Virus record (IMG/VR): IMGVR_UViG_3300030095_006531
Location: 12,457-76,456 of that record
From: a virus
Lineage: Duplodnaviria > Caudoviricetes
Direction: 5' to 3' (one strand)
Length of the DNA: 64,000 nt
The number at the start of each line of letters is the position of its first letter. The stretch's first letter is position 1. This document shows positions 278-64,000 of this stretch, one piece after another. Position numbers and translations under genes: made by a program. The notes beneath the pieces are model-generated. The model was not told where the DNA came from. It worked only from the letters and a program-made list of their open reading frames with translations, and made no database searches.

Positions 278-1252
278 TCAACCTCCAGGAGCACCTGGTG
301 GGGCAGAGCCGCGATAGTCAATCGGTGCCTTTTCCTTGAAAGGTCCACTATCTTGATTGCCTCCGTGCCTCAAAAGTCTTTTCATCTGCTTTATTAAGCG
401 AGGTTTTAATTTTGTTTGGAAGTCTTCTTCGAGTGCTCCCAAAAATGCAGACAACTTTTCACCTTCTGTTTCGATACTTGAATCCATATCATCGTCTGTT
501 GCTATGATATGGAAAAAATTATCTCCGAATAATTCTCTATACGGCTCACGATTTTTACTAACCGCATTCCAAGATCGCTCTACTGATTTGGCATCCAGCG
601 AGCGTCCGCCTCTTTCCAAACGATCTTGCTGGCGAGATAATGTAGTTTCAAGGGGAATATCAACAAAGATCATCCCAACATCGTACCCAAGCTCTTCCAG
701 CTTATTCTTCTGGTTTCTAATGACCCCAAATTGACCACCAGTCCCGTCTACAATAAAGCTTTCACCAGCTTCTATTGAGGCTTGTTGTTTTTCTTTAGCG
801 GCTTTTCGGGCTTTGTTAAACAATATAGCCATTTGGCTCATCTTGCTCCTGGTGAGTTCATAATCTTCCATTGTCTTTTCAAGATTATAGATGAAAGTTT
901 TATCACCATTGGATTCTTGGCTGGCTGAAACATAAAGATCCTGAAGAACATCATGGCTCCAGCCATCTTCTGGCTCTTGCAATTGCAAAATTTGACTTAA
1001 CAGTTCTTTTAGTTTTGTTCTGGCATTACTAAAATCATCTTTTATTTTTGCTATGTTCTTTCCAAGACCTGACTGATCCAACATTGGTTCATAAAAATCA
1101 TCGGGATTTATTATGTCCAACGTTTCCAACCCTAACCTATCAATTACCGTAGATTTGCCTGCACCTGGTGCTCCTGCCATAAAAATAACTTTAGGTGCTA
1201 CAGTCTCCTGTTCACCCAGATGCCGACGCCAGCTTTCCATTATGAGTTTCAT
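278..1252 (-). CDS. P-loop kinase of the zeta-toxin/AAA_33 type, with a helical insertion
   Basis: Walker A VIFMAGAPGAGKS, INPDDF, SFIVDGTG and GYDVGMIFVDIPLETTLSRQQDR motifs. Confidence 0.7.
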   Translation of the reverse strand: MKLIMESWRRHLGEQETVAPKVIFMAGAPGAGKSTVIDRLGLETLDIINPDDFYEPMLDQSGLGKNIAKIKDDFSNARTKLKELLSQILQLQEPEDGWSHDVLQDLYVSASQESNGDKTFIYNLEKTMEDYELTRSKMSQMAILFNKARKAAKEKQQASIEAGESFIVDGTGGQFGVIRNQKNKLEELGYDVGMIFVDIPLETTLSRQQDRLERGGRSLDAKSVERSWNAVSKNREPYRELFGDNFFHIIATDDDMDSSIETEGEKLSAFLGALEEDFQTKLKPRLIKQMKRLLRHGGNQDSGPFKEKAPIDYRGSAPPGAPGG

Positions 1253-22194: not shown

Positions 22195-22879
22195 TTTTAA
22201 TCTTAGCCTCAATTAAATTAAGGTAATATTGTTTTTTCATTGCATCTAATCGAGATTTTGATTTAAAATTTTTCCATTTATCGTATATTTCTTTGAACTG
22301 AGTTTTCTTGCCAGCTATTTTTGACCAATATTCGGCAGCGTCATCCACGATGAAAAGTTCGTCATACCCTTCTTCACCTCCAGCCCACACTTCATCAATG
22401 ATGGTTCCATCATTCGTATACAAATGTATTGCATAAGGATTATCTGGCTCATTGTTTCTTGGGCCACCGAAAATAAATGAATCTTGTTCAAATTCTTTTG
22501 CTAGTTCTTGAGCAGCGTCAAATAGAGATGTTGAGGTTCTGAATTTATCACCCCTTGGCTCTTCCCAGACCAAGATAGAGTCTTCAACAACCACATCACC
22601 CTCTGGTCCGCCTTCTTTATATCCACTTCCAGGCATACCCACATAAGAAAAGCCTGCCTCATCAAGAGATAATTTTAATTCTTTATTTCTTTCGATGTTC
22701 TCTTCCTTATTGTAGTCGCCTCGAAAGGCGGTCAACATGGCAAAAGGAATTTTTTCACCTTCTATTCTTCTCTTGATTCTTCCATAGTTTGCTTCATTCA
22801 AGATTTGTGGTTTGGCTAATAAAATTGTTTTTGGATTTAACGCTTCCACAATTAACTTTTTTAAGTCTTTTATATTCAT
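22187..22879 (-). CDS. Hypothetical protein (DUF3293-like) with a leader motif
   Basis: FAMLTAFRG...N.ELK..L...GF...EDSILV...EFEQDSFIF. Confidence 0.5.
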   Translation of the reverse strand: MNIKDLKKLIVEALNPKTILLAKPQILNEANYGRIKRRIEGEKIPFAMLTAFRGDYNKEENIERNKELKLSLDEAGFSYVGMPGSGYKEGGPEGDVVVEDSILVWEEPRGDKFRTSTSLFDAAQELAKEFEQDSFIFGGPRNNEPDNPYAIHLYTNDGTIIDEVWAGGEEGYDELFIVDDAAEYWSKIAGKKTQFKEIYDKWKNFKSKSRLDAMKKQYYLNLIEAKIKND

Positions 22880-47861: not shown

Positions 47862-49610
47862 TTAGAGTAAGTCTTCTACGATTACGAGTCCGTACATATC
47901 TGGACGCACCATCTTCTTACCGTAACGGGTCATGACACCCTTACGTGGTACGAAGTCTTCTGGTCCAAAAATGGTTGGAGTAACTTGTAATGGCACATAA
48001 GGTGCATATACGTAGCCACTTTCTAGGAAGCTATTGCCCTTACGACCTACAAGTAGAACATTTCGTGGGAAATATGGATCAACATAGATGTCCCATTTCT
48101 TGCTCACTTGGCCAACCTTAACTGCACCGGCAGTTCCACGATTCTCATCGGCTGTTGTGTCAGCACGGAAACCACTAGTAAACTCAAGAACGTTTGCAAC
48201 TTCTGGGCTAGTAACGATAAAGTTCGCCCCGCCGCGAAGTGTCTTTCTGTGAATTTGTGCAGAAACATCATTGACTGTCTCAAGAAGTGTCTCGTACCAT
48301 TCAGAAACAGTACCTGTGAAATCCGGATACAATGTTTCGTTGGTAGATGAACCGCCTGGGGCAGCTGCTGTTCCGCTACGCGCTACAAACTTACCTGGTT
48401 TACGTGACCAGAAGAAAGTTCCTGCTTGTGCGCCAATAATCAAATCTTCAAGAATTTCTTGATCGATTTCAAGTGCAATTGTTTCAGAAAGAATACCAGT
48501 CAACTCAACTTCAGCATCCAAGTTGTGGTATGCATTGATGTCTTGTTGCAGTTCTGGTGTCCATTTGGCCTTTAACTTCTTGGTTACAGCGGTGATTGAT
48601 ACACTGTCAACCTTGATGTCAATTTCTGGAATTTGGTTTGTATTTTCAAGTGCCCAGTCGGTTCGACCAACAATAGCACCTTTTGCAACACCAGAGGTGG
48701 TGAATGCATCTACAATTGAACCAGTTGCAATATCAACCAGAGGTACAGAAGCGGTAATGTCACTATTTTTATTAGCAGCACCAGTCCACTCAAAGACAAA
48801 AAGAAGCTCAGTGCCGTCACGACCTCCACCAACAAAAGAGCCACTGCTAAGTTGCGTTAGGCGTCGAACTTGTCGAATGTTAGTAAGACTACCAACAGAA
48901 GCATCATTTACTTCAACCGTGATTAAATCATCAAAATTGAGTGTTTTTTGAGCTGTTTCAAAGCTGGATCTAGCAATTGAGCCAATGCCGACAACACTAC
49001 CTGAAAGATCAGGGTCATAACGAGTGATCGCATTAGCGTTTGCGGGAGTTAGGCTTGACCACGAGGCTGCATCTGTTGCAGACGCTGTACCCCAACCCAA
49101 TAGTGTGGTTGTCAAAGATGCAAATGAAGCAGTTGGACTAGAATAGCCATTATTAAGAGCGTAAAAGCTCTTCTCTGCATTAGCACCAGTTAGATCAACA
49201 CCACCAGTGATTTGATTACCAACTGCACCACCGCCATAGACGGAATTGCCTTTAGTATACTGCGCCTTGGTGTCTCCATAGGTAAAGTCTAGGAAGAAAA
49301 TAAGGCCAGATGGCAAGCTCATTGGTTGAACTGACACTAGCTCATTTGCGATTAGTCCACCAAATACTCGACGGACAATTGGAAATGCAACCGCAGCGAA
49401 GCCTTCAACATCACTACCTTGCATTGTAGATGCTTCACGAAGAAGCTCTTTTGCTTGGTTTTCAAGAAGTGCAGCCATACTATTACGACCGTGATCACTC
49501 TCTAAACCTTCTAGAAGACCAGTTTTTTCCCATTTGTTGAGAACAGCTTGACCTTCTTTTTGGACATTGCGACTAACAATACCCTCAGTAAGTTTTTCGA
49601 TAATACTCAT
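47862..49610 (-). CDS. Major capsid protein (T4 gp23-like)
   Basis: SVQPMSLPSGLIFFLDF, KKLKAKWTPEL.QD..AYH.LDAE, YAPYVPL and MTRYG. Confidence 0.97.
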   Translation of the reverse strand: MSIIEKLTEGIVSRNVQKEGQAVLNKWEKTGLLEGLESDHGRNSMAALLENQAKELLREASTMQGSDVEGFAAVAFPIVRRVFGGLIANELVSVQPMSLPSGLIFFLDFTYGDTKAQYTKGNSVYGGGAVGNQITGGVDLTGANAEKSFYALNNGYSSPTASFASLTTTLLGWGTASATDAASWSSLTPANANAITRYDPDLSGSVVGIGSIARSSFETAQKTLNFDDLITVEVNDASVGSLTNIRQVRRLTQLSSGSFVGGGRDGTELLFVFEWTGAANKNSDITASVPLVDIATGSIVDAFTTSGVAKGAIVGRTDWALENTNQIPEIDIKVDSVSITAVTKKLKAKWTPELQQDINAYHNLDAEVELTGILSETIALEIDQEILEDLIIGAQAGTFFWSRKPGKFVARSGTAAAPGGSSTNETLYPDFTGTVSEWYETLLETVNDVSAQIHRKTLRGGANFIVTSPEVANVLEFTSGFRADTTADENRGTAGAVKVGQVSKKWDIYVDPYFPRNVLLVGRKGNSFLESGYVYAPYVPLQVTPTIFGPEDFVPRKGVMTRYGKKMVRPDMYGLVIVEDLL

Positions 49611-49633: not shown

Positions 49634-50848
49634 TTAAATAATTCCTGCAAGCCTCTTCATTCGCTCTGCGGCGGAATCCGAAGATTGCGTTTTTTCTTTG
49701 TTTGATTTCAAAACAAGCCTGTTATTTTTACTTATAGCTTCTCTTAGATTCTTCGGAGTGTTTTGATTACTCGAAGGTAAAGATTCCTGTAAGGTTTCAT
49801 AAATAACCTTGGCTTCTTCAGTTGAATTCGCGTTTGAAACCGCTTCGACAAGATTTTCTTTTTGTCGCTCATTCAAGGAGTTGGATTCCAGTATTCGATT
49901 CTTGTATACCAATTTGGCATTTGTTGTGTTAAGTTCAGTTAGTTTTTCACTAACTTGACGGGCAATACTCTTAAGTTCGTTGTGCTCACCTTCAAGCCTA
50001 TTCTTATCAGACTTGAGAGAATTTACTTGCTCTTCTAATTTTGCGATTTTTTTAACAGCTTCTTCAAAGGCTGCGTTTTCTTCTTCGTTCTCGGTTGATT
50101 CATCTGCTGCTGCTGCAACATCGACTGCATAAATTTGTTGAGCTTTGGTTGGATGAGTAGTTCCCAAATCTCCACGAGGCACATTTTCTAAATCAACTTT
50201 TAACATTTCTGCAATTGCATCTTTAAGAGATTCTTCATCAAGCTCAATCTCTTCTTCTAGTTCTTCTTCTAACTCTTCTTCCTCAAAAACTCCACGACCT
50301 TTCAAGATGTCGGCTTGTGTAACTTTACCATCTCCTGTTAGGTCTGGGAACTTTTTACCTTCAGCAAAAGCATCTACTAGGGCGTCTTCCACCTCTTCTT
50401 CTTTAACGTCTTCGGCGTCCGTATCATCTTCCATCTCTTCATTTAGGAGATTTTCAAGATCAGAGGTGTTTGCTTCAAACATAACTTCATCTTCTTCATC
50501 TTCTACATCAGAAGCAGCTTTCATAAGAGCATCCAAGTCTAGTTCAACGACTTCCTTGTCTTCAGGACAAGGACAAGCATCTTGACCATCTAGAGCTTTC
50601 ATGGGGATTTGATCTGTAAATTCATCAGGTTCGGGTGCTGCTGGATCTATCATGCTTGCGCCTTCAAAATCTTTTTCAGCTTCTAGACCCATTAGATCCT
50701 CTTCTTCAGTTTGCTCTAGCAATGTGTCAACCGCTTCTTTAATTTCGCCTGCATATTTTTCAAGAACTTCCTGTTCCGCGTTCTTAATTGCAGCTTCTTT
50801 AAGTGCTTGGGCATCTATAACTGCTTGTTCTAACATTGATGATGACAT
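49634..50848 (-). CDS. Prohead scaffolding protein (gp22-like)
   Basis: Acidic coiled coil directly upstream of the capsid gene; ends ERMKRLAGII. Confidence 0.85.
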   Translation of the reverse strand: MSSSMLEQAVIDAQALKEAAIKNAEQEVLEKYAGEIKEAVDTLLEQTEEEDLMGLEAEKDFEGASMIDPAAPEPDEFTDQIPMKALDGQDACPCPEDKEVVELDLDALMKAASDVEDEEDEVMFEANTSDLENLLNEEMEDDTDAEDVKEEEVEDALVDAFAEGKKFPDLTGDGKVTQADILKGRGVFEEEELEEELEEEIELDEESLKDAIAEMLKVDLENVPRGDLGTTHPTKAQQIYAVDVAAAADESTENEEENAAFEEAVKKIAKLEEQVNSLKSDKNRLEGEHNELKSIARQVSEKLTELNTTNAKLVYKNRILESNSLNERQKENLVEAVSNANSTEEAKVIYETLQESLPSSNQNTPKNLREAISKNNRLVLKSNKEKTQSSDSAAERMKRLAGII

Positions 50849-50923: not shown

Positions 50924-51331
50924 TTAGCCAACTCCTGCTGATCCAGACCAGTTGTTTTGTATGGATCCTGTTGGTATGTTTGTTAGACCGGCAACAAGAT
51001 CAAATGCTGAATCTGATGAAATTATTCTTTTGTAGTAGAGTTTGGTGACTTTTACATGAAGAGTGATTGAGTTTGTATCATTTTCTACATTTGCAGATAA
51101 TAAATCAAAATAATTATTTGTATCCATTCCATTTTCTGAAAAAGATATTCTTGGGCCATCAGCAGCAAGGAGTGTTTCAATGTTTCTTATGTGAATCCAA
51201 TTTGTTATTGTTGGGAATTCTATAACTTGTATTGCTGCCTTAGCGATAAGACTACGAAAATATGGTTTACTTGAAACTTGATACGATCCAACATGTCCTA
51301 AGCCGGGTTGACTCAAAGTATAAACGCTCAC
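50924..51331 (-). CDS. Small virion protein, paralog 1
   Basis: PGLGHVGSYQVSSKPY...NWSGSAGVG. Confidence 0.7.
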   Translation of the reverse strand: MSVYTLSQPGLGHVGSYQVSSKPYFRSLIAKAAIQVIEFPTITNWIHIRNIETLLAADGPRISFSENGMDTNNYFDLLSANVENDTNSITLHVKVTKLYYKRIISSDSAFDLVAGLTNIPTGSIQNNWSGSAGVG

Positions 51332-51753
51332 TATCCTATCCCCGCAGACCCAGACCAGTTGTCTCTAATTGATTCGGTAGGTACACCAGTTAATCCCGCA
51401 ATTACGTCTACTTTATCCGAAGAACCCGTTAAGTAAATTTTAGTCATTTTTAATTCCATTCGTGGCGTTGTTGCGTTTCGTCTTGCTCCACTTCCGTTAT
51501 AGTCATCAGAGACTCTAAAGTATTCTCCTGTTATGAAACCATTAGCGGAACCTGCGACTTTAATTATCTTTGAATTATCGGCAGACACGCCCCTATTCCT
51601 AACTATAATCCAGCGAGTCACAGAAGGGAAATTAATCTCTATTGGCCCCTCTGTGTAAACAGAGAGATCAATGTTTCCGCTTACAAATGGTTTTCCAGAT
51701 ACTTGATAAGCTCCAACCTGTCCTAAACCGGGTGGTTGCGGGGTATAAGGCAT
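51331..51753 (-). CDS. Small virion protein, paralog 2
   Basis: PGLGQVGAYQVSGKPF...NWSGSAGIG. Confidence 0.7.
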   Translation of the reverse strand: MPYTPQPPGLGQVGAYQVSGKPFVSGNIDLSVYTEGPIEINFPSVTRWIIVRNRGVSADNSKIIKVAGSANGFITGEYFRVSDDYNGSGARRNATTPRMELKMTKIYLTGSSDKVDVIAGLTGVPTESIRDNWSGSAGIG

Positions 51754-52166
51754 TATCCCACTCCCGATGAACTCGACCAGTTATTTTGTATTTCTTGCGT
51801 ATCGATTCCAGTTAATCCTACAATAACATCAACTTGGGTTGATGCCCCAGTCAAAAATAGCGATGTAACTTTTAATTCCATTCTTTGAGTCATCATGTTT
51901 GCGCGATCATTTGTGTCGCTAGAGACTGTAAAAAAATTATTTGTATCAAATCCAAGTTTTGAAAAGCCGACATCTACATCATTATTGACATCATGATTTG
52001 TAACAATAACCCAGCGGGTGACAGACGGAAAAGAAATTTCTAAAGGACCAAGAGCGCCTGCGGTTGCTACATTGACATTGATGCCCCCACTCAGAAAAGG
52101 TTTTCCTGAAACCTGATATGACCCTACATTCCCAAGACCGGCCCCATAATTTTTAAAAACTGACAT
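51753..52166 (-). CDS. Small virion protein, paralog 3
   Basis: AGLGNVGSYQVSGKPF...NWSSSSGVG. Confidence 0.7.
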   Translation of the reverse strand: MSVFKNYGAGLGNVGSYQVSGKPFLSGGINVNVATAGALGPLEISFPSVTRWVIVTNHDVNNDVDVGFSKLGFDTNNFFTVSSDTNDRANMMTQRMELKVTSLFLTGASTQVDVIVGLTGIDTQEIQNNWSSSSGVG

Positions 52167-52192: not shown

Positions 52193-52408
52193 CTATTCTT
52201 CTAATTCTTTTCTTTTCTGTTTTTCAATCTCAGCCAATCTTCGGAAATGTTTTTCTCTTTTGATTTCTGATGGTTTTTTATAATATTGTCGTTCTCTATA
52301 TTCTTCAACAATATTTGTTTTTTTTGATTTGCGAATGAACCTTTTAATTAGGTTTTCAACCGTTTCGTTTTTTCTTTTTCGTACTTCCATTACTTCAATT
52401 GCTTCCAA
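52193..52408 (-). CDS. rpsU: Ribosomal protein bS21 homolog
   Basis: ETVENLIKRFIRK...EYRERQYYKKPSEIKR; likely start is ATG 52390 (TAATG coupling). Confidence 0.88.
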   Translation of the reverse strand: MEAIEVMEVRKRKNETVENLIKRFIRKSKKTNIVEEYRERQYYKKPSEIKREKHFRRLAEIEKQKRKELEE

Positions 52409-52812
52409 GCCCCGCCAGCAATATTGACGATTCCTGTAATATCTACACCGGGATCGCTTGGGTCCATGTCCCGAAGTGCCCCATGGCCTTGAGATTTATT
52501 TTTGCCGCCAGATGTCATTGGTTTTACACCTTCGAACACGCCTTTAAGACCGGTAGAGTTTTCTAATTTTTTTCTGGACTCTGCCAAATGTTCATGAAGG
52601 TTGCTGCCAGCTTGAATTTCCTGCTTTATTTTGTTAAAATTATTTGAATTTTGTTTCGGTTTTGTTTTCACTAAATTAGCAGATTGGTCGTTATTTAAGC
52701 CGCGAGCGACTTCAGTGACAATACCTGATATTGTCCCATCTTCAAAAATCACTTCCTTTATACATTCTTTGATAAGGGGTTTTAATATTTTTTTTAATTC
52801 GTTTTTATTCAT
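52390..52812 (-). CDS. Hypothetical head-module protein
   Basis: LKKILKPLIKECIKEVIFE leader; ends DPGVDITGI. Confidence 0.65.
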   Translation of the reverse strand: MNKNELKKILKPLIKECIKEVIFEDGTISGIVTEVARGLNNDQSANLVKTKPKQNSNNFNKIKQEIQAGSNLHEHLAESRKKLENSTGLKGVFEGVKPMTSGGKNKSQGHGALRDMDPSDPGVDITGIVNIAGGAWKQLK

Positions 52813-53414
52813 TTGTTGCCTACAATGTCGTTCAATAAACGGTTTAATCGATCAGCTTTGCTCCAGAGTGTTTTATTCTTTGATTCGTTCATCGTCATAT
52901 AGGCACCTTGTGTTGAAGGCTCTGAAACAATATCAAAACATATTAGCTGAAAGTCATCTTCCACCAATGTTTGCCCTTGCTGCTCCCGAACTGAACCCAG
53001 ACCTCGGGAAGAAATACCAAGCATTACCCCATCATTTATAAGAGATTCTAAAATTTTCCCCGAGGGAGTTGAAAGAACCTTAATCTTACCCATAAGATCT
53101 TTCCCTTCCCACCACATGGAAGTAACCACATGGGAGGCATTTTTAAGATTCACAACAGAATCTTCAGGGTGATCAAGTTCTCCACAGGCTCTGCTTTCTT
53201 TCACAACTTTCATGTAATTCTTAACTTCTCTTTGTAAAATCTGTGCAGGATATACCCTTCCATTTCCGTTTTGCTCGTCACATCTTTGCATAACTCCGGT
53301 TAAGAACACAGTCCCTTCTTTAACTTGCCTTTTTTCATCTTCCGTTAAGAGATCGTGGCAGACGCCACCGGCACACAATTCAAAGTATTCTCTTAAGAGG
53401 TATTTACTATTCAT
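52809..53414 (-). CDS. Prohead protease (T4 gp21-like)
   Basis: NGNGRVYP, GELDHP, GISSRGLGS and FDIVSEPST; start moved to ATG 53414. Confidence 0.93.
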   Translation of the reverse strand: MNSKYLLREYFELCAGGVCHDLLTEDEKRQVKEGTVFLTGVMQRCDEQNGNGRVYPAQILQREVKNYMKVVKESRACGELDHPEDSVVNLKNASHVVTSMWWEGKDLMGKIKVLSTPSGKILESLINDGVMLGISSRGLGSVREQQGQTLVEDDFQLICFDIVSEPSTQGAYMTMNESKNKTLWSKADRLNRLLNDIVGNK

Positions 53415-53754
53415 CGCTTTCACCCTTTTTCTTGGCTTCTTTGAGTGTACTATAAAATTCTTTGGGAGACTCTCCACCACCCAAATCTTCGTGACCATCC
53501 AGCATTCGCCAAACATCGGCGACTTTTTTGTGGATAAGTTCAAAATCAGGGGATACTTCCTCTGTTTCGGCCATTTCGCCTCGGTATTCGTGTATTACAT
53601 CCAATGCTTTTCCAAGAGTCATATAAACAATTGAGGCGATAGGGATCTCGTTCTCTCCCATTTTGTTGTCGGGGAAATCGCCCTCGGTCAAGTCAGAGGA
53701 ATAGTTGAGTTCCTCTTGAATTATATTTACTAGTCTTGTTTTAGTGATTTTCAT
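53407..53754 (-). CDS. Hypothetical protein with MKITK leader
   Basis: MKITKTRLVNIIQEEL. Confidence 0.65.
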   Translation of the reverse strand: MKITKTRLVNIIQEELNYSSDLTEGDFPDNKMGENEIPIASIVYMTLGKALDVIHEYRGEMAETEEVSPDFELIHKKVADVWRMLDGHEDLGGGESPKEFYSTLKEAKKKGESDE

Positions 53755-54705: not shown

Positions 54706-55522
54706 CTTCTTTTAACTCCTCAGCCAATGCTTGAATTTTAATTATTTCTTCTACCATTTGTTTATCGGGCTTTCTTTCTTTGCAAGAATCTAGAATATCT
54801 ATAACTTTTTGTGCATTTTCAGTCATTTGAGAGTCCGACATAATCTCATCTTTACCAAAAGACATTTGCAATTCTTTTTTTAATCGTCCCACCTCTTCAT
54901 TTAAATAGTTCTTTAACTCAAGACCGTTATTATGAAAAGAAGTAACAAACTTATTTAACAATTCTTTTTGTGTAGGGAGGAGTTTTTCTGAATATTCTTG
55001 ATTAAATCTTTTAATGAAAGATTTATACACCAAATTATCAATCGGCACCATTCCTTCTGTAAGTTTTTGGGAAGACATTTTTTCTACAATTTCACCTTCC
55101 AAAAGAATTTTAGACTTCACTGGTATTTTGTCATTAAAAATTTGAGCAATAGAGGCCAAGTCTTTGTAACTGGGGACAAAATTATTAAAAGCTTTTTCGC
55201 TGGCTAATTTTTTAATTTTTCTTGTCAACTTGTTTTGTTCAGAAACTAACTTTTTCTTGTTAATCGCAGCATGTCGGAGTTTTACCTCGGTCAACATCTT
55301 TTCCGCAACAACTGTGTCAACACTTTTAGTATTTATGATGGCTTGGTAGAGTTTCAACTCTTGATACATCATAGAATCTCTTGAGTAAAACTCTTTAATT
55401 AAAGAAGTTAAGCTCTCTCTTAGTTCTAAATTTTTAGAAATAACTGCTTTTGTTAATTCCTGAACCAATACTTCATATAAAAAAGCACTATTTTTCTTCT
55501 TGTTGTGTTTAAATTTAGCCAT
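54689..55522 (-). CDS. Hypothetical head-assembly protein next to portal
   Basis: KHNKKKNSAFLYEVL; coupled to the portal stop. Confidence 0.6.
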   Translation of the reverse strand: MAKFKHNKKKNSAFLYEVLVQELTKAVISKNLELRESLTSLIKEFYSRDSMMYQELKLYQAIINTKSVDTVVAEKMLTEVKLRHAAINKKKLVSEQNKLTRKIKKLASEKAFNNFVPSYKDLASIAQIFNDKIPVKSKILLEGEIVEKMSSQKLTEGMVPIDNLVYKSFIKRFNQEYSEKLLPTQKELLNKFVTSFHNNGLELKNYLNEEVGRLKKELQMSFGKDEIMSDSQMTENAQKVIDILDSCKERKPDKQMVEEIIKIQALAEELKEDGDQN

Positions 55523-57510
55523 TATTTGTTTCCGCTTTTACCTTTTCTTTCAAGATTTTCAATAATTTTTTGAATTTCAATGTCATTTTCTAACACCCTA
55601 AGCTCATCTTGAGCTTGTTTGTCATTATAATTAGTTTCAAGTTTTTCATAAATTCCACGAGCAAGTTGATTCAGCTCGGAGGCACCTTTAAATATATTTC
55701 TGGCTGTATTTTTTCCTGTCTCTTCTGAGTATTGGGCCTTGTATGAACGATTTCGCGCACCCATATCTCTTTTGTCAGTTTTAACCGGCTTATATTTTTT
55801 ACCTTTTGCACCAGGTGTTGTATATTCTTGTTGCCTTAATCTCCACTTCATGTCGTTTCTTTTACCAGGTTCGGCAAGATCTGTGGCGGGGGCGGCTGCT
55901 TCATCCGGTGATGCGAGAAGTGTTTCTTCTCCTTCTTCGCCCGGAGCGGCAGGCTCGTCTGCGGCGGCATCTGCGCCGAGGGCATCACCCAAACCAGCGG
56001 GTCCACCCAAGCCATCAGAACCACCCATGCCGTCCATGAGCCCTGATTCCTCTGCGACAGCATCATAAGCGACATCGAGTTGTTTGTCAAAAAACAACTC
56101 GCGTTGGTTACGCACAATTTCTTCATCAGACAAATCAAAAATATGTTTAGAAACCCATCTACGACTAAAGAAGCCTTCTGTTGCTGCACCAGCAATTTCA
56201 AACTTTGTACGCCAATGCTCAAGCTCTTGAAGTTCTGCAATTTTAGAAGGCTGATTGAGGCGTATCTTAAATGAAATTAAGTCTTTGTTTTTATAACCTA
56301 ATGTATAAAGGTGAATAACGGCAATCTTTTCCAGCTCCGAAACGATGCTTCTTTGCAATCGGGAAATAGTACGAGCAAAGCGAATGTCTCTTTGAGCAAG
56401 AGTTGTCTTATCTTCGCTCCCTTCGTCTCCTTGAGTGAGATAGGATGCAGGGATTTTTAAAGCAGAAAATAATTTGTCTCGCAAATATTTTACATCATCA
56501 ATATCTCCGGTGTATGTTCCGCCCGGAAGAGATTCAATTTTTGTTCCACCAGCAGTTCCACGAACAGGAATAAAATAATCTTCATCAACTGACATCGGAT
56601 TGTAGCGCAAATCAACACGACCTGAGTCTGCATCAATAACTTGATTTCTTTTCATTTGTGTTACGATTCTTTGCATATGTTGTTCAACTTCGCTTTCAGG
56701 AATACCACCAACATCAATATAAAAAACTCTTCTTTCTGGTGAACGAACAACACGATACGCCATCATTGCATCCTCAATCAACATCAACTGTCTCCAGATT
56801 CTGCGAGAAGACTCTAAAACAGATGTTCCGTATGGTGCATATTTGTCATTTCCTAAAATTCTAAAATGTGCGACTTGCCAGTTTTCAAAAGTAAGTCCAC
56901 CTGAATTCCATTGAAATTGAACATAATTCGGATTTGTTTTATCTTCACCCTCCATTCTTTGGACTTCCGCAGGCGGCAAACCAATTACAGACTTAACTCC
57001 TAGGTTTTCATCAATATCTAAATATAGAAAGTAATCCCCATACTTACACATGCTTCGACACCAACCATAAAGGTTAAAATCTACATTTAAAACACTATAA
57101 AATAAATCATTAAGAACGCTTTTAATTTCTTCGTTTGGACAATTGATGGTTAGGATTTTTTGAAGAGGAGAACTTGTAGTCATCTCATCTGCATAAATAT
57201 CTAAACCTGATGCTAATTCAGGCATAAACTCCATTTGATCAAAATCTATATACCTTTCTGCGCGGGCCATGTTGGTGGCTGATTCGGCATAGATGCCGTC
57301 GAATGGGCTGTATGCAGTTTTTTTAAAATGAAGACCACCAGCAGATTGAAACTTGTATTTATCAAGCTGCCATCTTTTTAGTTGTCGTGGGTTTTGTCGC
57401 TGATATTGGGTCAAAGGACCGGACAAAAGCCTAGTCAGGGCTTTGAAAAGAAAATTATCAGGATTCCTTGTGTTTGAAGTATTTTTATTATTGTTATTGT
57501 TGTAAGCCAT
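55522..57510 (-). CDS. Portal protein (T4 gp20-like) with a long C-terminal extension
   Basis: LMLIEDAMMAYRVVRSPERRVFYIDVG, EDYFIP and DVKYL..KLF.ALKIP. Confidence 0.95.
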   Translation of the reverse strand: MAYNNNNNKNTSNTRNPDNFLFKALTRLLSGPLTQYQRQNPRQLKRWQLDKYKFQSAGGLHFKKTAYSPFDGIYAESATNMARAERYIDFDQMEFMPELASGLDIYADEMTTSSPLQKILTINCPNEEIKSVLNDLFYSVLNVDFNLYGWCRSMCKYGDYFLYLDIDENLGVKSVIGLPPAEVQRMEGEDKTNPNYVQFQWNSGGLTFENWQVAHFRILGNDKYAPYGTSVLESSRRIWRQLMLIEDAMMAYRVVRSPERRVFYIDVGGIPESEVEQHMQRIVTQMKRNQVIDADSGRVDLRYNPMSVDEDYFIPVRGTAGGTKIESLPGGTYTGDIDDVKYLRDKLFSALKIPASYLTQGDEGSEDKTTLAQRDIRFARTISRLQRSIVSELEKIAVIHLYTLGYKNKDLISFKIRLNQPSKIAELQELEHWRTKFEIAGAATEGFFSRRWVSKHIFDLSDEEIVRNQRELFFDKQLDVAYDAVAEESGLMDGMGGSDGLGGPAGLGDALGADAAADEPAAPGEEGEETLLASPDEAAAPATDLAEPGKRNDMKWRLRQQEYTTPGAKGKKYKPVKTDKRDMGARNRSYKAQYSEETGKNTARNIFKGASELNQLARGIYEKLETNYNDKQAQDELRVLENDIEIQKIIENLERKGKSGNK

Positions 57511-57512
57511 TT

Positions 57513-59102
57513 TTACCCTTTAATCAGCCAACCAAAATCTTTATAATTTTTGTCTGCTGTCTTTATTTTATCAAAAGATTGTTGCTTTTTGTAGCCAAAC
57601 ATACCAGGAATTGTTGTATTTAATTTTGTATTTGAAGAAACCATTGAGTTTAAAAATGCTCTTTTATATTTTAAATCTTTGGTGTTCTCTTCTAATACCG
57701 TGTCCCTAACCCAACATGCAATCGCTAATGACATTACTAGGTCATCGTTGTATCCTCTTTGAGCTTCTGGTCTGCCGTTCCTCCAAACAAAAGTCTTTAA
57801 CTCTTGATAAGTTCTAATAGATTTTATCGTAATTAGTTCATTTCTCACGAATTCTTCAAGTTTTGCAACAATCAGTGGTCTTGTTTTTTGAGATGTTGTA
57901 AAACCTGGTACGGCATTTGATACACTTTCGGCTAAATATTGCTCCACATATTCGTGTGTTCCCTTTGTAGAATAATAAATATTTGAATAACCAGCGTCTA
58001 TTAGCTTCTCTAACACAGAAAACCCTATATTGTTGTTTTCCACAATAAGCATAGCGTCACCATATTCTTTACCAGCATCAAACAATATTCGAGCAAACAA
58101 ATCGGTTGTTGGTTTTCCTCTATATTCTGCAACTTGTTCCATTGTGCTTGTTTTAAAAACGTGAAAAACTGAATAATCATTTCCATCGCCACGAGCAACA
58201 TCACCAACCATCAGATATTTATTTTCTGGATTGTATTCTTCCCATATCCAAAAGTTTCTGTCAAAACCTGTTTGGTGTTTTGGATCTCCACAAGCTGCAT
58301 GAATTGTGTTAAGGTTGTCCGGATGTATTACAGTTTCACCAGAAGCATTAAAATTGCACTCATATTCTTGTGCAACACGACGCCTTGAAAGGTTTCTTGT
58401 GGTTTCATCAAACCATGCTTGATCTCTTTCAGGGTGCAAAGTCCAATGAAGGCGTGTTGGATGAAAATCATTTTCCCCAGATTCAGATGCAACATATGTT
58501 TTGTGAAACCAATTGCCAACACCATTTGGAGAAGAAAGTGCAATACATCGACCACCTGCTGCCATTGTAGGTTGAAGTGCTGTCCACAAATCTTCAAAGC
58601 CTTCGATGTGCGCTGCCTCATCAATGACGAGCAGTGAAAGTGCTTCTGAACGACCAGCGTCTGCGGAGGTTGATGATGCTTTTATTTCTGAACCGTTATT
58701 TAAAACAAACGATGATCTGTTGTCGATGGCTATTGTGGCCAACTGATCAAACCAAGGTGGCAAAAGTTTAATCATTGCTTTTACTTTCTTAACCAAGTTT
58801 GAAGCTGTGCTGAACTTTGTGGCAATAACAAGAATATTTTTGTCACGATGAAACAGCATCATCCACGATACATAAGCAGCAGTAATTGTAGATATACCCA
58901 TCTGCCTAGATTTTAATATCACATTGTTGCGATAATCGTTAAATTTGTATAGTAATTCTTGTTGAAAGTCCCACGTCTTGAATGGTACTTGTCCGCGAGT
59001 TGGGTGTGAAATCTTGCAATAATTGTCTATAAAATAAACAGGATCTTTCCCACACTTAACAATTTCTTTTACTAAGTCTTTCTTTGACAAATATTGTGAC
59101 AT
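57513..59102 (-). CDS. Terminase large subunit (gp17-like)
   Basis: ILKSRQMGIST, LLVIDEAA, SSPNG, GDVARGDGND and DDLVMSLAI. Confidence 0.95.
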   Translation of the reverse strand: MSQYLSKKDLVKEIVKCGKDPVYFIDNYCKISHPTRGQVPFKTWDFQQELLYKFNDYRNNVILKSRQMGISTITAAYVSWMMLFHRDKNILVIATKFSTASNLVKKVKAMIKLLPPWFDQLATIAIDNRSSFVLNNGSEIKASSTSADAGRSEALSLLVIDEAAHIEGFEDLWTALQPTMAAGGRCIALSSPNGVGNWFHKTYVASESGENDFHPTRLHWTLHPERDQAWFDETTRNLSRRRVAQEYECNFNASGETVIHPDNLNTIHAACGDPKHQTGFDRNFWIWEEYNPENKYLMVGDVARGDGNDYSVFHVFKTSTMEQVAEYRGKPTTDLFARILFDAGKEYGDAMLIVENNNIGFSVLEKLIDAGYSNIYYSTKGTHEYVEQYLAESVSNAVPGFTTSQKTRPLIVAKLEEFVRNELITIKSIRTYQELKTFVWRNGRPEAQRGYNDDLVMSLAIACWVRDTVLEENTKDLKYKRAFLNSMVSSNTKLNTTIPGMFGYKKQQSFDKIKTADKNYKDFGWLIKG

Positions 59103-59107
59103 ACATA

Positions 59108-59698
59108 TTAAATAGGTTTTTTATTCTTTTTTGGTTTTGGTGTCGGTTTTTTAGTTTTGCCGGACAAGTCATCAATTGCATCTTCTACAGTTTGAAATCC
59201 CCACCAATCATATCGCTTCGGTTCTTCTTTGTCGTCTTTAGATTTCTTTTTAGCTTTTGCTGCTTTAGCCTTCTTTTTATTCTTGTCGTCTTCAGAACCG
59301 GCTCCGGGGATTTTTTTGCGCCCATCATCATTGTCATCATCTTTTCCATCACCGGCATCGCCACCACCACCGAATATTTTATCCAGACCGTATGCTACAA
59401 TCAAAGAGCGAGGAATTAACTTGCCAAGATCCATTTTAAGATTTTTTCCGACCCAAGTGCTGAGTTGTCCTGGTGTTTTCTTCACCAGTTGAGAAGCGAT
59501 TTTGTTTGCGGCAGAAGGTCCAAGGCGTTTTGTAAGCTCTCGCCCTACGAAAGGAACTATAGCTCTTGTAGCCGAGGAACGAACTGCACCCATCGCAGCT
59601 CCCATTGCGGCGGCGGCGACAGCCGGAGCTACTTCATTTAAAAACAATTCAAGCTCTTCTTGAACGAGTTGTTCTAAAAGGGTGGTGTCAAGCTTCAT
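59108..59698 (-). CDS. Hypothetical protein with MKL leader and a Lys/Asp-rich tail
   Basis: MKLDTTLLEQLVQEEL..FLNE. Confidence 0.6.
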   Translation of the reverse strand: MKLDTTLLEQLVQEELELFLNEVAPAVAAAAMGAAMGAVRSSATRAIVPFVGRELTKRLGPSAANKIASQLVKKTPGQLSTWVGKNLKMDLGKLIPRSLIVAYGLDKIFGGGGDAGDGKDDDNDDGRKKIPGAGSEDDKNKKKAKAAKAKKKSKDDKEEPKRYDWWGFQTVEDAIDDLSGKTKKPTPKPKKNKKPI

Positions 59699-59701
59699 GA
59701 T

Positions 59702-60277
59702 TTATGAGCGAGGTTCTTCGTCACGCTTTCCTTTAACGTTTTCTGGTTTTTTAGTGTTTGGAAATTTGTCTTTTCCAAAACCAAGCCAATTTTTAAAAGC
59801 AGTATCTAGCCTTTCTTCAACAGTTGTCCCTAGTTCAGGTTGTTCTGGCATTCCACCAATTTTAAATTTTTGTGTGGCATTGCAAATAGAGCGAACACGA
59901 CTTGTTGATTGAACGAGAATATCAGGTTCTTTATCAACTTTGGTAAGAGTCAATCCATTTCCAGTGACCTTTTTATATTCTTTCTTGAGGAAGGAAGCAA
60001 TGTCTTGTAGTCGTTGAGAGATTTCACCTTCAAAATCACCTTTATGAACTTCTCTTAGTGTGATTTCACTTTGATATTTCAAAATCAAAACATCACCAGC
60101 AAACGAAACTTTAAAACCATCAATAACTCGTTTGTCCAAAATAGGATCCCCTTCTTCACGCTTTAATCCAATTTTAAGTGGTTCTCCATTTTCATCCAAT
60201 GAACCGTCATATGCATTTGATGCTGCTTGTTGAATACCGTGAATAATTTCTAATACATTTGATTTTTTCTCAGCCAT
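59702..60277 (-). CDS. Hypothetical protein
   Basis: 191-aa ORF, tightly packed. Confidence 0.65.
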   Translation of the reverse strand: MAEKKSNVLEIIHGIQQAASNAYDGSLDENGEPLKIGLKREEGDPILDKRVIDGFKVSFAGDVLILKYQSEITLREVHKGDFEGEISQRLQDIASFLKKEYKKVTGNGLTLTKVDKEPDILVQSTSRVRSICNATQKFKIGGMPEQPELGTTVEERLDTAFKNWLGFGKDKFPNTKKPENVKGKRDEEPRS

Positions 60278-60280
60278 TAT

Positions 60281-60613
60281 TTATTCCTTCTCTTTTTTCT
60301 TTAGCCAACACCCAAAACATTGGTTAAATTTTACCATGTAAAGATCGTCCCTTGAGCTAAACGAATAAGTTTTGCACACAGGACAAGTTCGCTTTGATTC
60401 TTTCCTAAATAGTTTCTTAGGCATTAAAACACCATCAATCTCTATTTTCTCTTTTGGTTTCTCTTGTTTAGCAATTTTTTTAATCTGTTCTAGATATTCT
60501 TTTTCTTTTTCTTCGTCCCAGGTTGCTTTTGGGTTCTGAATTGTTTCTTCACCATACTTTTCTTGAATGGCATTTTCAACCTTTATTAGGTAATTGTCGT
60601 CTTTGTCTTTCAT
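60281..60613 (-). CDS. Zn-ribbon hypothetical protein
   Basis: CPVC...CFGC. Confidence 0.6.
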   Translation of the reverse strand: MKDKDDNYLIKVENAIQEKYGEETIQNPKATWDEEKEKEYLEQIKKIAKQEKPKEKIEIDGVLMPKKLFRKESKRTCPVCKTYSFSSRDDLYMVKFNQCFGCWLKKKEKE

Positions 60614-61059
60614 TTAGCGATTTCAGTTGATGCGTAAAAAATTGCAATCGACATTCCTGCTCCCAATACAAAACCAATTGTTGCCCACCAAGTATTATCA
60701 GAGCCTTTTGCCAACCCTCTTAAGGTTTCTATTTCTTCTTTTTGTGCGTTGTAAATCAATTTATTCTTTTTTCTTTCAATCTCTAATTCGTATTTTAAGT
60801 AATTTGTATCACGATCACAACCGGCTTTGGCCATAGCCTTCTCATACTCTAGCTCTACCTTACACTTTTCTTGTTGATATTTTTTGTCTGCAATTATTTT
60901 TGCAGTTGCCACCGGGTCAAAAAGTGTTCCCTTGAAGGGCGCTTTCTCACCCTTTTCCACAAGAGCAAATTTTCCAGAAGTGCTTGTTGTTGTTTGGGCT
61001 AAACTTGTTGAGGAAAAAAATAAAATACTAGTCAGAATTGTTGCGCTTTTTAGGAACAT
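60610..61059 (-). CDS. Exported coiled-coil protein with a C-terminal TM helix (spanin-like partner?)
   Basis: Signal-peptide-like N-terminus; ends WWATIGFVLGAGMSIAIFY. Confidence 0.5.
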   Translation of the reverse strand: MFLKSATILTSILFFSSTSLAQTTTSTSGKFALVEKGEKAPFKGTLFDPVATAKIIADKKYQQEKCKVELEYEKAMAKAGCDRDTNYLKYELEIERKKNKLIYNAQKEEIETLRGLAKGSDNTWWATIGFVLGAGMSIAIFYASTEIAK

Positions 61060-61423
61060 ATGTTAATCCAAATAAATCAGAAATCTCTTTTGAGATTTTG
61101 TCTGGTTCATTATAATGTTTTTTAACAATTTTTTTAATCTCTTTTTTGCTTTTTGCTTTCAATTCTTTGTTTTGCGATTCTCGTACTCGCTCAATTGCTG
61201 CAACCGCATCTTCATATTCTTCTTGAACTTTTTGTTTTGCCACAGTTTTTTCTACGGCAGCAGTTTCGATTGCTAATTTTTCTTTTTCGTAGGTTTCTTT
61301 TTGGGCATCAATAATTTTCAACAAATCATCACTTTTACTTTTCATTATCACACCAATGATAATGAGTGCGGGTATATACCAGTGGGTCTTTAAAAAGGAA
61401 AATATGATCTTTAGAGTTTTCAT
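61028..61423 (-). CDS. N-anchored coiled-coil protein (i-spanin-like)
   Basis: WYIPALIIIGVIM followed by a long coiled coil. Confidence 0.5.
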   Translation of the reverse strand: MKTLKIIFSFLKTHWYIPALIIIGVIMKSKSDDLLKIIDAQKETYEKEKLAIETAAVEKTVAKQKVQEEYEDAVAAIERVRESQNKELKAKSKKEIKKIVKKHYNEPDKISKEISDLFGLTYVPKKRNNSD

Positions 61424-62172
61424 TTTTTACCTGTAAGTGCTGTAGCTAGGGCAATTAGGGCATCTTCTTTTTCACCACCAGCGCCTGAATCAACAGACTT
61501 AATTGAGTCGATGGCAGATTCATCAACTTTCTTTTTTATTTTTATAGTTACTTTTTTTGTCTTTGTTTCTTCTTTTAATTCTTGCTCTTTCATTTTTCTT
61601 CCCACAACCTCATAGTCTTTTGCTAAATTTTCAATTTCACTATCAACTGCATCGTCAATGAGTTTCATCAAACGCTTTTCAAATTCTTGTTCATCCCTAA
61701 AGTTCATTGAGCCGATGCGCGTTTTTCTTATTTTTGCAACCAACTCTCTCTTCATTACATCTAGGCTTTTGCTTGGTGTCGCCTTTTTTTGTTTGGGAAT
61801 TCCACCAGAACCTAACTCAGAACCATAAAAATCAAATCTTGCTTCGTTTATTTTTTTTACACCTTTTTGGTTCATGATCGTAATTACAATTTCGCCATCT
61901 TTCTTTCGAGATTTTTCTTTCCGCCCTCGGTTTTTTGAAACTGGAACACATTTAACTTCATCACTTTCTATTCCATTTATATGATGCAGTTCCGTCCCTT
62001 CTGGGCATTCACCAAATTCCTTATCGTGTTTGCGTTTATCTCTTTTTCTTTTATTTCTTTCTTCTTGCTCTTTTGATCCGGGCTTGTTATATTCTTTTGA
62101 ATAGTCGCGTGGAGTTTCAGAATCTTTATTCCACTTGCGTTCACTCAATTCCTTTTTGACACGGATCTTCAT
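61420..62172 (-). CDS. Modular protein with a degenerate HNH-like segment
   Basis: RDYSKEY...CPEGTELHHING...VPVSKNRG. Confidence 0.45.
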   Translation of the reverse strand: MKIRVKKELSERKWNKDSETPRDYSKEYNKPGSKEQEERNKRKRDKRKHDKEFGECPEGTELHHINGIESDEVKCVPVSKNRGRKEKSRKKDGEIVITIMNQKGVKKINEARFDFYGSELGSGGIPKQKKATPSKSLDVMKRELVAKIRKTRIGSMNFRDEQEFEKRLMKLIDDAVDSEIENLAKDYEVVGRKMKEQELKEETKTKKVTIKIKKKVDESAIDSIKSVDSGAGGEKEDALIALATALTGKK

Positions 62173-62177
62173 GGTAT

Positions 62178-62185
62178 TAAATAGT
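62178..62185 (-). promoter_or_regulatory. Putative late promoter motif ACTATTTA
   Basis: 5 nt upstream of ATG 62172, no SD. Confidence 0.6.
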
Positions 62186-62187
62186 TG

Positions 62188-62658
62188 CTATGCAACAAGC
62201 TCTTCTAAGGCTTGCAACATTCCTTCTGCTGCTTCGATGCCAAATTTTTGAGCTATTATTTTCCAGTTCTCTCGAATTGCTGGCATGTGTTTTTTTAAAA
62301 AGTTCCCAACGACCCCTTTCTTGATTCTAACTTGCTTTCCAGCTTTTACATGCTTGTCTGCTTTAGACAATATAATACCCAGTTTTGTTCCTTTTCCAAC
62401 AACATCACCAAGTGCTGGGAGCATTGACATGGCGGATAAAGCCGCCATTAAATATTCACCCTTTTTAAGATAGAGTGCTGCGTTTGCAGCATCAAAAACT
62501 GCACCTGCGCCACCAGCCACATCACCAACAATGCCAGCGACATCTAAAACGCCATGGACCCAACCGGGCACCTCTTTTTCTTCTTTTTTCTTCTCATAAA
62601 CAACTTGGTCGATCTCTTCTAATACAATTTGTTCAAGTTGTGATTTTGTGATTTTCAT
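62188..62658 (-). CDS. MKITK-leader protein with a pre-toxin (PT-TG-like) module
   Basis: LDVAG...FDAANAALY...GEY..AALS..SMLP..GDVVGKG.K. Confidence 0.6.
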   Translation of the reverse strand: MKITKSQLEQIVLEEIDQVVYEKKKEEKEVPGWVHGVLDVAGIVGDVAGGAGAVFDAANAALYLKKGEYLMAALSAMSMLPALGDVVGKGTKLGIILSKADKHVKAGKQVRIKKGVVGNFLKKHMPAIRENWKIIAQKFGIEAAEGMLQALEELVA

Positions 62659-62671
62659 ATTCGTTATTCCT

Positions 62672-63163
62672 TTATCCTGATTTTACATCAGGTTCATAGC
62701 CTGATTTTCCACCAGGGCGAGCTTTTTCAACTTCCCTTTTACGCTTGATTCCCCAATCCAATGTTGCTCCACCTTCTTTTCTAGAGTCGGTACAGATTGC
62801 GGCTGCTGCGTCTTCGACCGTCTTTCCTTTAAATGGTTTGTAGCCATATTTTTTAAACGATTTTTTAACACTATTTATACAATCATGAAATACATCATCG
62901 GCAGTGCCTGGTTCTTGAGTTGGGTTAAAATGTTTCGGAGTTTCGACTTTTTCTTCTGATACTCTTTTAAAATATTGAACTTCTCTCTCTCGATTTTCAG
63001 CACCTTTTCTGGATGAATAACATCCAAGATTTCTTGCTTTACCTGTTTTGGGATTCTTTTTTTTGGAATAAAGACAATACTCGCCACCAGACTTTCTAAT
63101 GACCTCATCTATCTCTTCTTGGATAAATTCTAGAAGTATTGTCTTTGAGAGCTTCATTAGCAC
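62672..63163 (-). CDS. MKL-leader modular protein
   Basis: MKLSKTILLEFIQEEIDE, then a basic module and a Cys-flanked module. Confidence 0.6.
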   Translation of the reverse strand: MLMKLSKTILLEFIQEEIDEVIRKSGGEYCLYSKKKNPKTGKARNLGCYSSRKGAENREREVQYFKRVSEEKVETPKHFNPTQEPGTADDVFHDCINSVKKSFKKYGYKPFKGKTVEDAAAAICTDSRKEGGATLDWGIKRKREVEKARPGGKSGYEPDVKSG

Positions 63164-63600
63164 TTTACCTTACCAAATTTTGGACCTTTTTGTTTTGAGC
63201 GAATTGCAAAATTAATTTGTCTAACTTTTTTTTGCTCGGCATCTGTGCGTTTTTCTTTTTTCATTAATTTGTTTTTCATGGCACATAATTCTTCAGAGGA
63301 TTTACCAGAATATTCACCAGTTTGTTCAATTTCTGCATCTCCCTTCCACGCTTCAGACAACGACTCACCGCGCATATAATTCATTACTGAGGAAAGATAA
63401 TCATTCGCTTTAGTAATTTTCGACTCGACCCATTCTTCGAGGTCTGTGTCTTCTTGGATCATATCCCCAATCATTGTTGCCAACTCTGCTGTTCTTGCCA
63501 GTTGATTTTTTGCCATCGATCCTTCGCCATAGTCACCTTCTGATAGTGTGCTTAATTCTTCGTTTATAATCTTAAAAAGTTTTTGTTTAGTTATTTTCAT
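63157..63600 (-). CDS. MKITK-leader modular protein
   Basis: MKITKQKLFKIINEEL..LSE; EGSMAKNQL..EWVESKITKA.DYL module. Confidence 0.65.
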   Translation of the reverse strand: MKITKQKLFKIINEELSTLSEGDYGEGSMAKNQLARTAELATMIGDMIQEDTDLEEWVESKITKANDYLSSVMNYMRGESLSEAWKGDAEIEQTGEYSGKSSEELCAMKNKLMKKEKRTDAEQKKVRQINFAIRSKQKGPKFGKVKC

Positions 63601-64000
63601 TTGACTCTCCAATTACAGACATAATGTGTTCATGTACCTTGTTAGTAATCATCTCTTCACTTAGTTCTTTTTTATCTTTAAACAAAGATGCAAAATCGAA
63701 CTCACAAACAGTTTCCGCAACCGCCACATTAATACCTTCTAAAAAGGTTTCGCCAATACTTTCTCGGGCTGCGCCTGCAAACCAACTATCAGTTTTGATG
63801 CCCAGTATCTCCGGGATGCTTTCTGCAATTGTTTCGGTTACGCCTCCCGCAAGTTCGCTAGTTGCGGCAATACATTGTCGATCTCCACTCATTATGTTAG
63901 ACAAATCTTCAAGAGTTAAGTTGCCAAACATGTTTGTAATAATTTTTGAAAGAAGACCGCCACGTTCGATGCCCATAAAGCCCAAAACTTTCATTGCGAT
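63587..64000 (-). CDS. Hypothetical protein, truncated at the window edge
   Basis: Open frame running to the window end. Confidence 0.55.
   Translation of the reverse strand: MAMKVLGFMGIERGGLLSKIITNMFGNLTLEDLSNIMSGDRQCIAATSELAGGVTETIAESIPEILGIKTDSWFAGAARESIGETFLEGINVAVAETVCEFDFASLFKDKKELSEEMITNKVHEHIMSVIGESNENN

Follow-up and report, generated by a model that had tools for sequence, protein, structure and literature searches.

In the 64,000-base stretch of viral DNA analysed here (the window; bases 12457-76456 of a linear IMG/VR virus record that has 76,456 bases and an estimated completeness of 42%), five genes begin with the same short peptide. This peptide, which we call leader A, precedes otherwise different proteins and is a candidate address tag for loading them into the phage head. 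All five genes lie on the minus strand, which carries nearly all genes of the contig, and they start with ATG at 53754, 59698, 62658, 63157 and 63600, as a preliminary description of this DNA had stated. On the contig, leader A follows the pattern M-K-[IL]-x-K-x-x-L-x-x-[ILF]-[IV]-x-E-E-[LI]. Only 7 of 1,621 possible starts fit this pattern, all of them ATG codons on the coding strand, and two of these seven copies are located upstream of the window. When a hidden Markov model (HMM) of the leader was scanned over the genome, the seven copies were clearly separated from all other starts: they scored 27-39 bits, the next best start 12.4 bits (genome position 7751, outside the window) and the rest at most 6 bits. 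With a profile built mostly from other phages, the window copies still scored 26-36 bits.

The gene at 53407..53754 encodes a 115-residue protein, and its stop codon overlaps the start of the protease gene described below. Its payload, defined here as the sequence after residue 24, is acidic (isoelectric point, pI, 4.6). Directly upstream of the large terminase gene, 59108..59698 encodes a 196-residue protein whose payload (pI 9.9) combines an Ala/Gly-rich hydrophobic stretch with a Lys-rich tail. The gene at 62188..62658 encodes a 156-residue protein with a Gly-rich, hydrophobic payload of pI 9.5. Next to it lies 62672..63157 (161 residues, ATG at 63157), which has a basic payload of pI 9.5 whose C-terminal half turns up again behind other leaders in relatives. 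The payload of 63157..63600 (147 residues, ATG at 63600) consists of two shuffled modules, M1 and M2. Finally, a 5'-open reading frame on the minus strand (63587..64000) runs off the contig end. In the homologue from locus L008, a leader-like start precedes the aligned part by about 54 residues, so this frame is probably a further, cut-off leader protein, the sixth copy in the window.

The preliminary description had presented 59108-63612 as a stretch of leader genes. Four leader-A genes do lie within it, but so do the leaderless genes 59702-60277, 60281-60613, 60610-61059, 61028-61423 and 61420-62172. Two of these are small and overlap (60610-61423). The first has an N-terminal transmembrane segment and a coiled coil, with a weak OmpH-like match (E 1e-4), and the second combines a signal-like start with a transmembrane segment at the C-terminus; they may form an envelope or lysis pair.

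Looser variants of the leader had also been proposed, at 22879, 52812, 62172 and 1252. The starts at 22879 and 62172 obtained no score in the leader profile, and the start at 52812 was marginal (4.6-5.7 bits). The 62172 start was further rejected as a leader because, in locus L049, the homologue of this gene is fused in frame behind another payload. The variant at 1252 is not a copy of leader A but carries a separate class of leader, type B (M-K-L-[LI]-M-E-x-W-[KR]-[KR]-x-L-x-E), presented below. Two of the dismissed starts belong to genes that deserve a mention of their own. The 230-residue product of 22187-22879 has a sub-threshold match to S-adenosylmethionine lyase (PF23780, E 3e-5, 24.4 bits against a cut-off of 28) and is possibly an anti-restriction enzyme. 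The gene at 52390-52812, just downstream of the protease gene, encodes a conserved 140-residue head-module protein with a Lys/Leu/Ile-rich N-terminal helix ending in V-I-F-E-D, which may be a third, private propeptide.

Leader B was recognized at the start of a zeta-toxin/AAA-like kinase encoded at 278..1252 on the minus strand (Pfam PF06414, E 1.4e-12; leader-B HMM, 37.9 bits). Its pattern can also be written M-K-L-L-M-E-x-W-[KR]-x-[YF]-L-x-E, and it stands at the head of at least seven genes within 13.7 kb spanning the window start. Its hydrophobic-x-Glu motif occupies residues 12-14, the same residues as in leader A. Leader B ends in F/Y-L-x-E at residues 11-14, a motif resembling the T4 cut sites of gp23 (F-L-T-E) and gp67 (F-L-I-E). 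By its pattern, leader B is a second class with a sequence unrelated to that of leader A and the same geometry.

The anatomy of leader A was then analyzed in relatives, taken as 80 IMG/VR loci from a terminase search. These loci contain 125 leader-A starts, all on the terminase strand, corresponding to 90 non-redundant leader proteins. Their consensus is M-K-[LI]-T-K-x-x-L-x-x-[IL]-I-x-E-E-[LI], followed by x-x-[LV]-[L]-x-E. Leader A has a conserved core of 16 residues; were the second site the one cut, it would span 18-22 residues. Of 340 leader matches in 1.5 Mb of related DNA, 285 begin at Met, and likely GTG or TTG starts account for many of the remainder.

The preliminary description had noted an (L/I/V)xE site after each window leader (LTE, LNE, VYE, IDE and LSE). 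These sites are present and their register is fixed across relatives, but such a downstream site occurs in only about 70% of leaders: in 63 of the 90 proteins, a second Leu/Ile/Val-x-Glu has its Glu at residue 18, 21 or 22. At least one L/I/V-x-E ends at residues 17-30 in 69 of the 90, compared with 16-22% of control windows (14 residues, taken deeper in the same proteins). At residues 19-30, 57 such motifs were observed, whereas shuffled sequences gave 32 +/- 4 on average and 46 at most. Besides this downstream site, the only one named in the preliminary description, there is an invariant candidate cut site inside the leader itself, Ile/Val12-x-Glu14, present in 89 of the 90 leaders. A single hydrophobic-x-Glu site in one protein is weak evidence, but across relatives the register is fixed.

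Leader A is widespread in metagenomes. A 30-column leader profile retrieved 10,704 clusters (50% identity) at E <=0.001 among 1.84 billion representatives. Ten of these clusters were looked up; they come from metagenome collections (ENA, JGI/IMG and NCBI), including the ocean surveys GOS and Tara, and are unnamed or annotated as hypothetical protein. Among the best 150 of the 10,704 profile matches, 140 contain two to four copies of the leader. Since 62 of the 167 internal copies have no Met, these tandem units are real and do not result from merged genes. A hydrophobic-x-Glu motif ends at most 6 residues upstream of 114 of the 167 internal copies, compared with 11% of background windows. When Glu occurs at that place, P3 is hydrophobic in 67-69% of cases against 22% elsewhere, with the same bias for copies with and without Met. 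A Shine-Dalgarno origin of this Glu was therefore rejected, because copies without a start codon share the bias. The downstream site is also found in 120 of 157 internal copies. This tandem layout is what would be expected of a polyprotein made for a Glu-specific protease.

The leader genes are embedded in a T4-type head module. The window encodes, on the minus strand, a portal protein of the gp20 family (55522..57510; Pfam PF07230, E 6.3e-78, above cut-off), a major capsid protein of the gp23 family (47862..49610; Pfam PF07068, E 3.6e-73, above cut-off) and an S77 prohead core serine protease of the T4 gp21 family (52809..53414; Pfam PF03420, Peptidase_S77, E 2.7e-31, 109 bits against a cut-off of 27). 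The gp21 homologue announced at this place in the preliminary description is therefore confirmed, and it is presumed to be the processing enzyme for the leaders. With gp20, gp23 and S77 (gp21) homologues, the virus, an uncultured marine phage, is a T4-type myovirus. Its large terminase (57513..59102, minus strand) has its closest cultured matches in Flavobacterium phage immuto and Microcystis phage Mel-JY01 (45% identity), and is 35% identical to that of T4-like cyanophages.

The leaders are linked to this module at two places. The 53754 gene, overlapping the protease gene start, occupies the slot held by gp68 in T4, and its family keeps both the leader and the slot beside the protease in relatives. 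In G000 and L050 the S77 gene has a leader gene immediately upstream, and in L050 another immediately downstream: there, a 238-residue leader protein fills the upstream slot and a 351-residue leader protein follows the protease gene. At the second place, the region immediately preceding the large terminase gene, leader genes fill a variable island. The occupant of the slot next to the terminase gene varies across relatives and is either a leader-A or a leader-B gene. The 13 kb that precede the terminase gene in a complete 185-kb relative contain three leader-A and five leader-B genes. More widely, the exact-consensus leader pattern occurs in 90 stretches in IMG/VR, and an S77 gene is present in 17 of the 22 large consensus-leader contigs, including all 4 that are at least 85% complete. 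Two further identities were considered and dropped. The 53754 family shows no homology to T4 gp67 or gp68 in hhalign, and the resemblance of one window leader to a scaffold N-terminus, visible by eye, obtained no profile score.

The proteins behind leader A are as diverse as first claimed, and modules are shuffled behind it. BLAST clustering divided the 90 payloads into 57 clusters, 46 of them singletons, and the five window payloads each fell in a different cluster. Payload lengths range from 49 to 510 residues. Five of the seven contig payloads are basic (pI 9.2-10), and the 53754 payload, encoded next to the protease gene, is acidic. Hydrophobic stretches occur in two payloads (maximum 19-residue Kyte-Doolittle means of 1.3-1.6). 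Neither Pfam nor PHROG gave a match for the window payloads, and no real Pfam domain was present in 88 scanned leader proteins of relatives, the sole match being of low complexity. The label "effectors" is a guess, because no payload has an assigned function.

In a 5.8-billion-protein collection, modules M1 and M2 of the 63157-63600 protein occur separately, following the same leader but combined with different inserts or C-terminal parts. Larger proteins of cyanophage S-SM2, pelagiphage HTVC008M and Mel-JY01 contain M1 too, in these cases with no leader. AlphaFold2 predicted an all-helical fold for the 63157-63600 protein (mean predicted local distance difference test score 63.5); a Foldseek search of this model against BFVD returned nothing at E <=0.001, and the payload had no match in PHROG, including the IPIII family phrog_5341. 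For the 62188-62658 protein, a PT-TG identity was considered and set aside, since it has no Pfam match and its sole signal, an Atlas feature score of 0.90 with 142 features in common, amounts to no more than a lead.

Rearrangements were also observed in relatives. In L049 (144-1673), homologues of 62672-63157 and 61420-62172 form one 510-residue frame and the gene between them (62188-62658) is missing, which shows directly that cassettes are gained and lost in the island. In a head-module family (L022:8424-9380, L023:8648-9652 and L031:17115-18104), leader A is N-terminal and a leader-like helix stands at the extreme C-terminus. The propeptides at both ends recall T4 Alt. The central D-G-H-H-R-W motif of this family is reminiscent of ParB-like nuclease domains, with no Pfam match. 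The tag itself, the register of its sites, its modularity and its linkage to the protease gene and head module are directly observed.

These features point to leader A being a cleavable prohead-targeting propeptide that works like the T4 capsid-targeting sequence (CTS), an explanation that we consider probable, with appreciable room for doubt. It is most likely a much enlarged version of the T4 load-then-clip signal. The amphipathic helix of about 16 residues would dock the precursor on the scaffolding core during assembly of the T4-type prohead. The S77 (gp21-type) protease would then cut after Glu at hydrophobic-x-Glu, either after residue 14, after residue 18, 21 or 22, or at both places. 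Cutting would free a small, mostly basic mature protein in the head, able to exit with the DNA at infection. Any payload placed behind the tag, or in tandem between tags, would be loaded in this way. Docking, cutting, virion residence, injection and an effector role are what we infer. At the sequence level, the modular address tag put forward in the preliminary description is partly supported, by its modularity, its fixed-register sites, the co-occurrence with S77 and the linkage to the protease gene and head module; three of its four looser variants are lost.

Several results weigh against such a propeptide. The second site is absent from about 30% of leaders, and the residue after the invariant Glu14 is Glu15, whereas known T4 sites have small residues there. 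Leader A has no detectable similarity to the T4 CTS, and its profiles give noise on T4 proteins; none of the leader proteins matched PHROG internal-protein families at E <=0.01. The 53754 family has only its gene position in common with T4 gp67 and gp68 (hhalign probability 0.1% each). The co-occurrence of leader and S77 is confounded by ancestry, because all carriers found belong to one broad T4-type clade. In a tblastn search of cultured phages in GenBank, the 25-residue consensus leader found no close copy, only a chance-level match; the nearest cultured case is one weak leader copy in Flavobacterium phage immuto (gene immuto136C_190). The putative late promoter described below is not directly upstream of the window leader genes. 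Finally, M2 and T4 IPIII share S-K-Q-K-G-P-x-F, invariant in both families, and W-x-x-D-x-x-I-E-x-x-G at similar spacing, which is suggestive of homology, but the statistics of this comparison are weak (BLASTP E 0.014 in a 193-sequence set; hhalign probability 20-26%).

The main rival explanation, to which we give a minor share of credence, is that leader A is a retained docking or oligomerisation helix. Such a short coiled coil would not be removed and would gather diverse small proteins on one shared partner other than the head, for example the phage chaperonin, a nucleoid protein or a replication factory. Indeed, the hydrophobic residues of the leader, at positions 1, 3, 8, 11, 12, 16, 19 and 20, form an amphipathic, heptad-like pattern. 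Internal and C-terminal copies exist, and the phage encodes a GroEL-like protein (window 3679-5250). However, a retained helix leaves unexplained the invariant Glu with its hydrophobic P3 at fixed register, the hydrophobic-x-Glu just before internal copies, and the gene positions beside the S77 gene and head module. Even if it were a retained docking helix, leader A would still be among the most widespread unannotated motifs in marine phage proteins.

It is much less probable that the leader proteins are an ordinary, fast-evolving paralogue family in which the N-terminus was kept for folding and the remainder diverged, with no address-tag role. Small proteins in clustered arrays would suit this explanation, tandem arrays being typical of duplication, as would the lack of any payload with a known fold. 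It is difficult to reconcile with payloads of 49 to 510 residues in 57 unrelated clusters, or with modules M1 and M2, which occur separately and behind other inserts, M1 even being leaderless in the three phages named above. The existence of a second, unrelated leader with the same geometry also argues against it.

A membrane-association or export signal, which would send the proteins to the envelope or outside the cell, is very improbable. The leader is N-terminal and amphipathic, and two payloads have the hydrophobic stretches mentioned above. Nevertheless, Lys, Glu and Gln occur throughout the leader (positional composition, n=90), with a charged residue every 2-4 positions. None of the features of Sec, Tat, lipoprotein or double-glycine signals (hydrophobic core, twin-arginine, lipobox Cys, Gly-Gly) was found in the 90 leaders, and internal tandem copies do not fit a signal peptide. 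The least probable explanation is an element acting at the nucleic-acid level, either a translation-initiation enhancer or the border of a recombination cassette, for which the peptide would be incidental: T4 ipII and ipIII do share 30 identical leader bases, but the 62 internal copies without a start codon, the freedom of synonymous sites and the unrelated upstream regions all contradict it. Among the seven contig copies, the same residue is encoded by the same codon in just 45% of pairs, the 16 codons are 61% identical in nucleotides and 52% in residues, and the 40 bases upstream are 26% identical. Selection on leader A thus acts on the peptide and not on the DNA.

Returning to the propeptide, a broader proposal can be made, which we advance tentatively and hold at somewhat less than even odds. 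In uncultured marine T4-type phages, two portable tags, used singly or in tandem polyproteins cut by S77, might load a very large and fast-changing repertoire of small proteins into the heads. The thousands of payload families in ocean metagenomes would then be a reservoir of injected first-strike factors (anti-defence or take-over) far larger than the few described in T-even phages. Should the tag indeed load heads, it would provide a simple sequence rule to list the virion-delivered proteins of abundant unculturable ocean phages, and would indicate thousands of candidate injected factors. Tandem polyprotein cargo would moreover be a new way of packing several proteins from one gene.

Other features of the window were recorded in the course of this work. 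The motif ACTATTTA, found between 1476 and 62185, shows a strong strand bias (16 sense against 2 antisense occurrences). Ten genes are preceded by it at a distance of 12-54 bases, among them the scaffold-like gene (49634-50848) and those with starts at 47752, 44960 and 41940, which makes it a candidate late promoter. No such placement is seen for the canonical T4 late box, TATAAATA. Three tandem paralogues of about 137 residues lie between the protease and scaffold-like genes (50924-52166), and a fourth is found 32 kb away (18545-18967). They have a common start (G-L-G-N-V-G-S-Y-Q-V-S-G-K-P-F) and a common end (N-W-S-G-S-x-G-[VI]-G), and belong to no Pfam family. The triplet is conserved in L050.

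Leader A was finally compared with known systems for addressing proteins to a shell. Among the papers of the library searched, none contains the leader strings, describes a marine CTS or reports such a system outside T-even and giant phages. Encapsulin cargo-loading peptides and microcompartment encapsulation peptides are short helical tags that dock diverse cargo inside a self-assembling shell related to the HK97 fold. They are usually C-terminal, are uncleaved and serve cellular compartments instead of virions, and there is no sequence relation between them and the leader.

Among phages, P1 loads its Dar antirestriction proteins (DarA, Hdf, DarB) into the head during assembly and injects them, DarA being processed (PMC9024508, PMC12810830). 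This loading follows a hierarchy of specific proteins, without a common portable leader. In the giant phages phiKZ, 201phi2-1 and SPN3US, propeptides of ejection or inner-body proteins are cut by a gp21-related protease at S/A/G-x-E (PMC5694885, PMC10052503). Leader A resembles these propeptides in several respects, namely an S77-related protease cutting after Glu (for leader A, a putative cut predicted from its sites), paralogues with conserved N-termini and multiple sites. However, the giant-phage propeptides are mostly longer than 100 residues and are not one portable short tag, and their P3 residue is small, compared with Ile, Leu or Val in leader A.

The closest parallel is the CTS of T4. 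It is 10-19 residues long, directs proteins to the scaffolding core and suffices for the loading of foreign proteins, and its processing is determined by P3 and P1 (PMC9026906, PMC5694885, PMC3012670). An Asp at P1 prevents processing in T4 but leaves targeting intact (PMC9026906). The internal proteins of T-even phages are basic and have CTS-like leaders (PMC9026906), and the load-then-clip logic is documented for those of T4 (PMC9026906, PMC5694885). In the T4 record, all that IPII and IPIII have in common is a leader of 10 residues, which ends in I-A-E, and the known gp21 substrates include L-R-E in gp24 in addition to the gp23 and gp67 sites quoted above. This 10-residue leader by itself cross-matches several PHROG internal-protein families. 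Gene 108 of Synechococcus phage S-SM2 (L189:827-1255), which adjoins a gene with module M1, starts with M-K-T-L-K-Q-F-L-K-E, very like the T4 CTS; T4-type leaders may therefore also occur in cyanophages.

Like the CTS of IPI, IPII, IPIII and Alt, which is removed by gp21, leader A is N-terminal, stands on unrelated proteins and ends in hydrophobic-x-Glu; its length is at the upper end of the T4 range or slightly above it. It too belongs to a phage with a T4-type head, and its payloads are small and often basic. It differs from the CTS by a longer core (16 residues, about 22 with the second site) and by two candidate sites. The repertoire is also far larger, with 7-8 leader-A and at least 7 leader-B genes on 76 kb, and includes tandem leader-payload polyproteins, which are not described for T4. 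Altogether, leader A is classified as CTS-like in its working and not as a member of the T-even CTS family, because it has the logic in common with that family and not the sequence.

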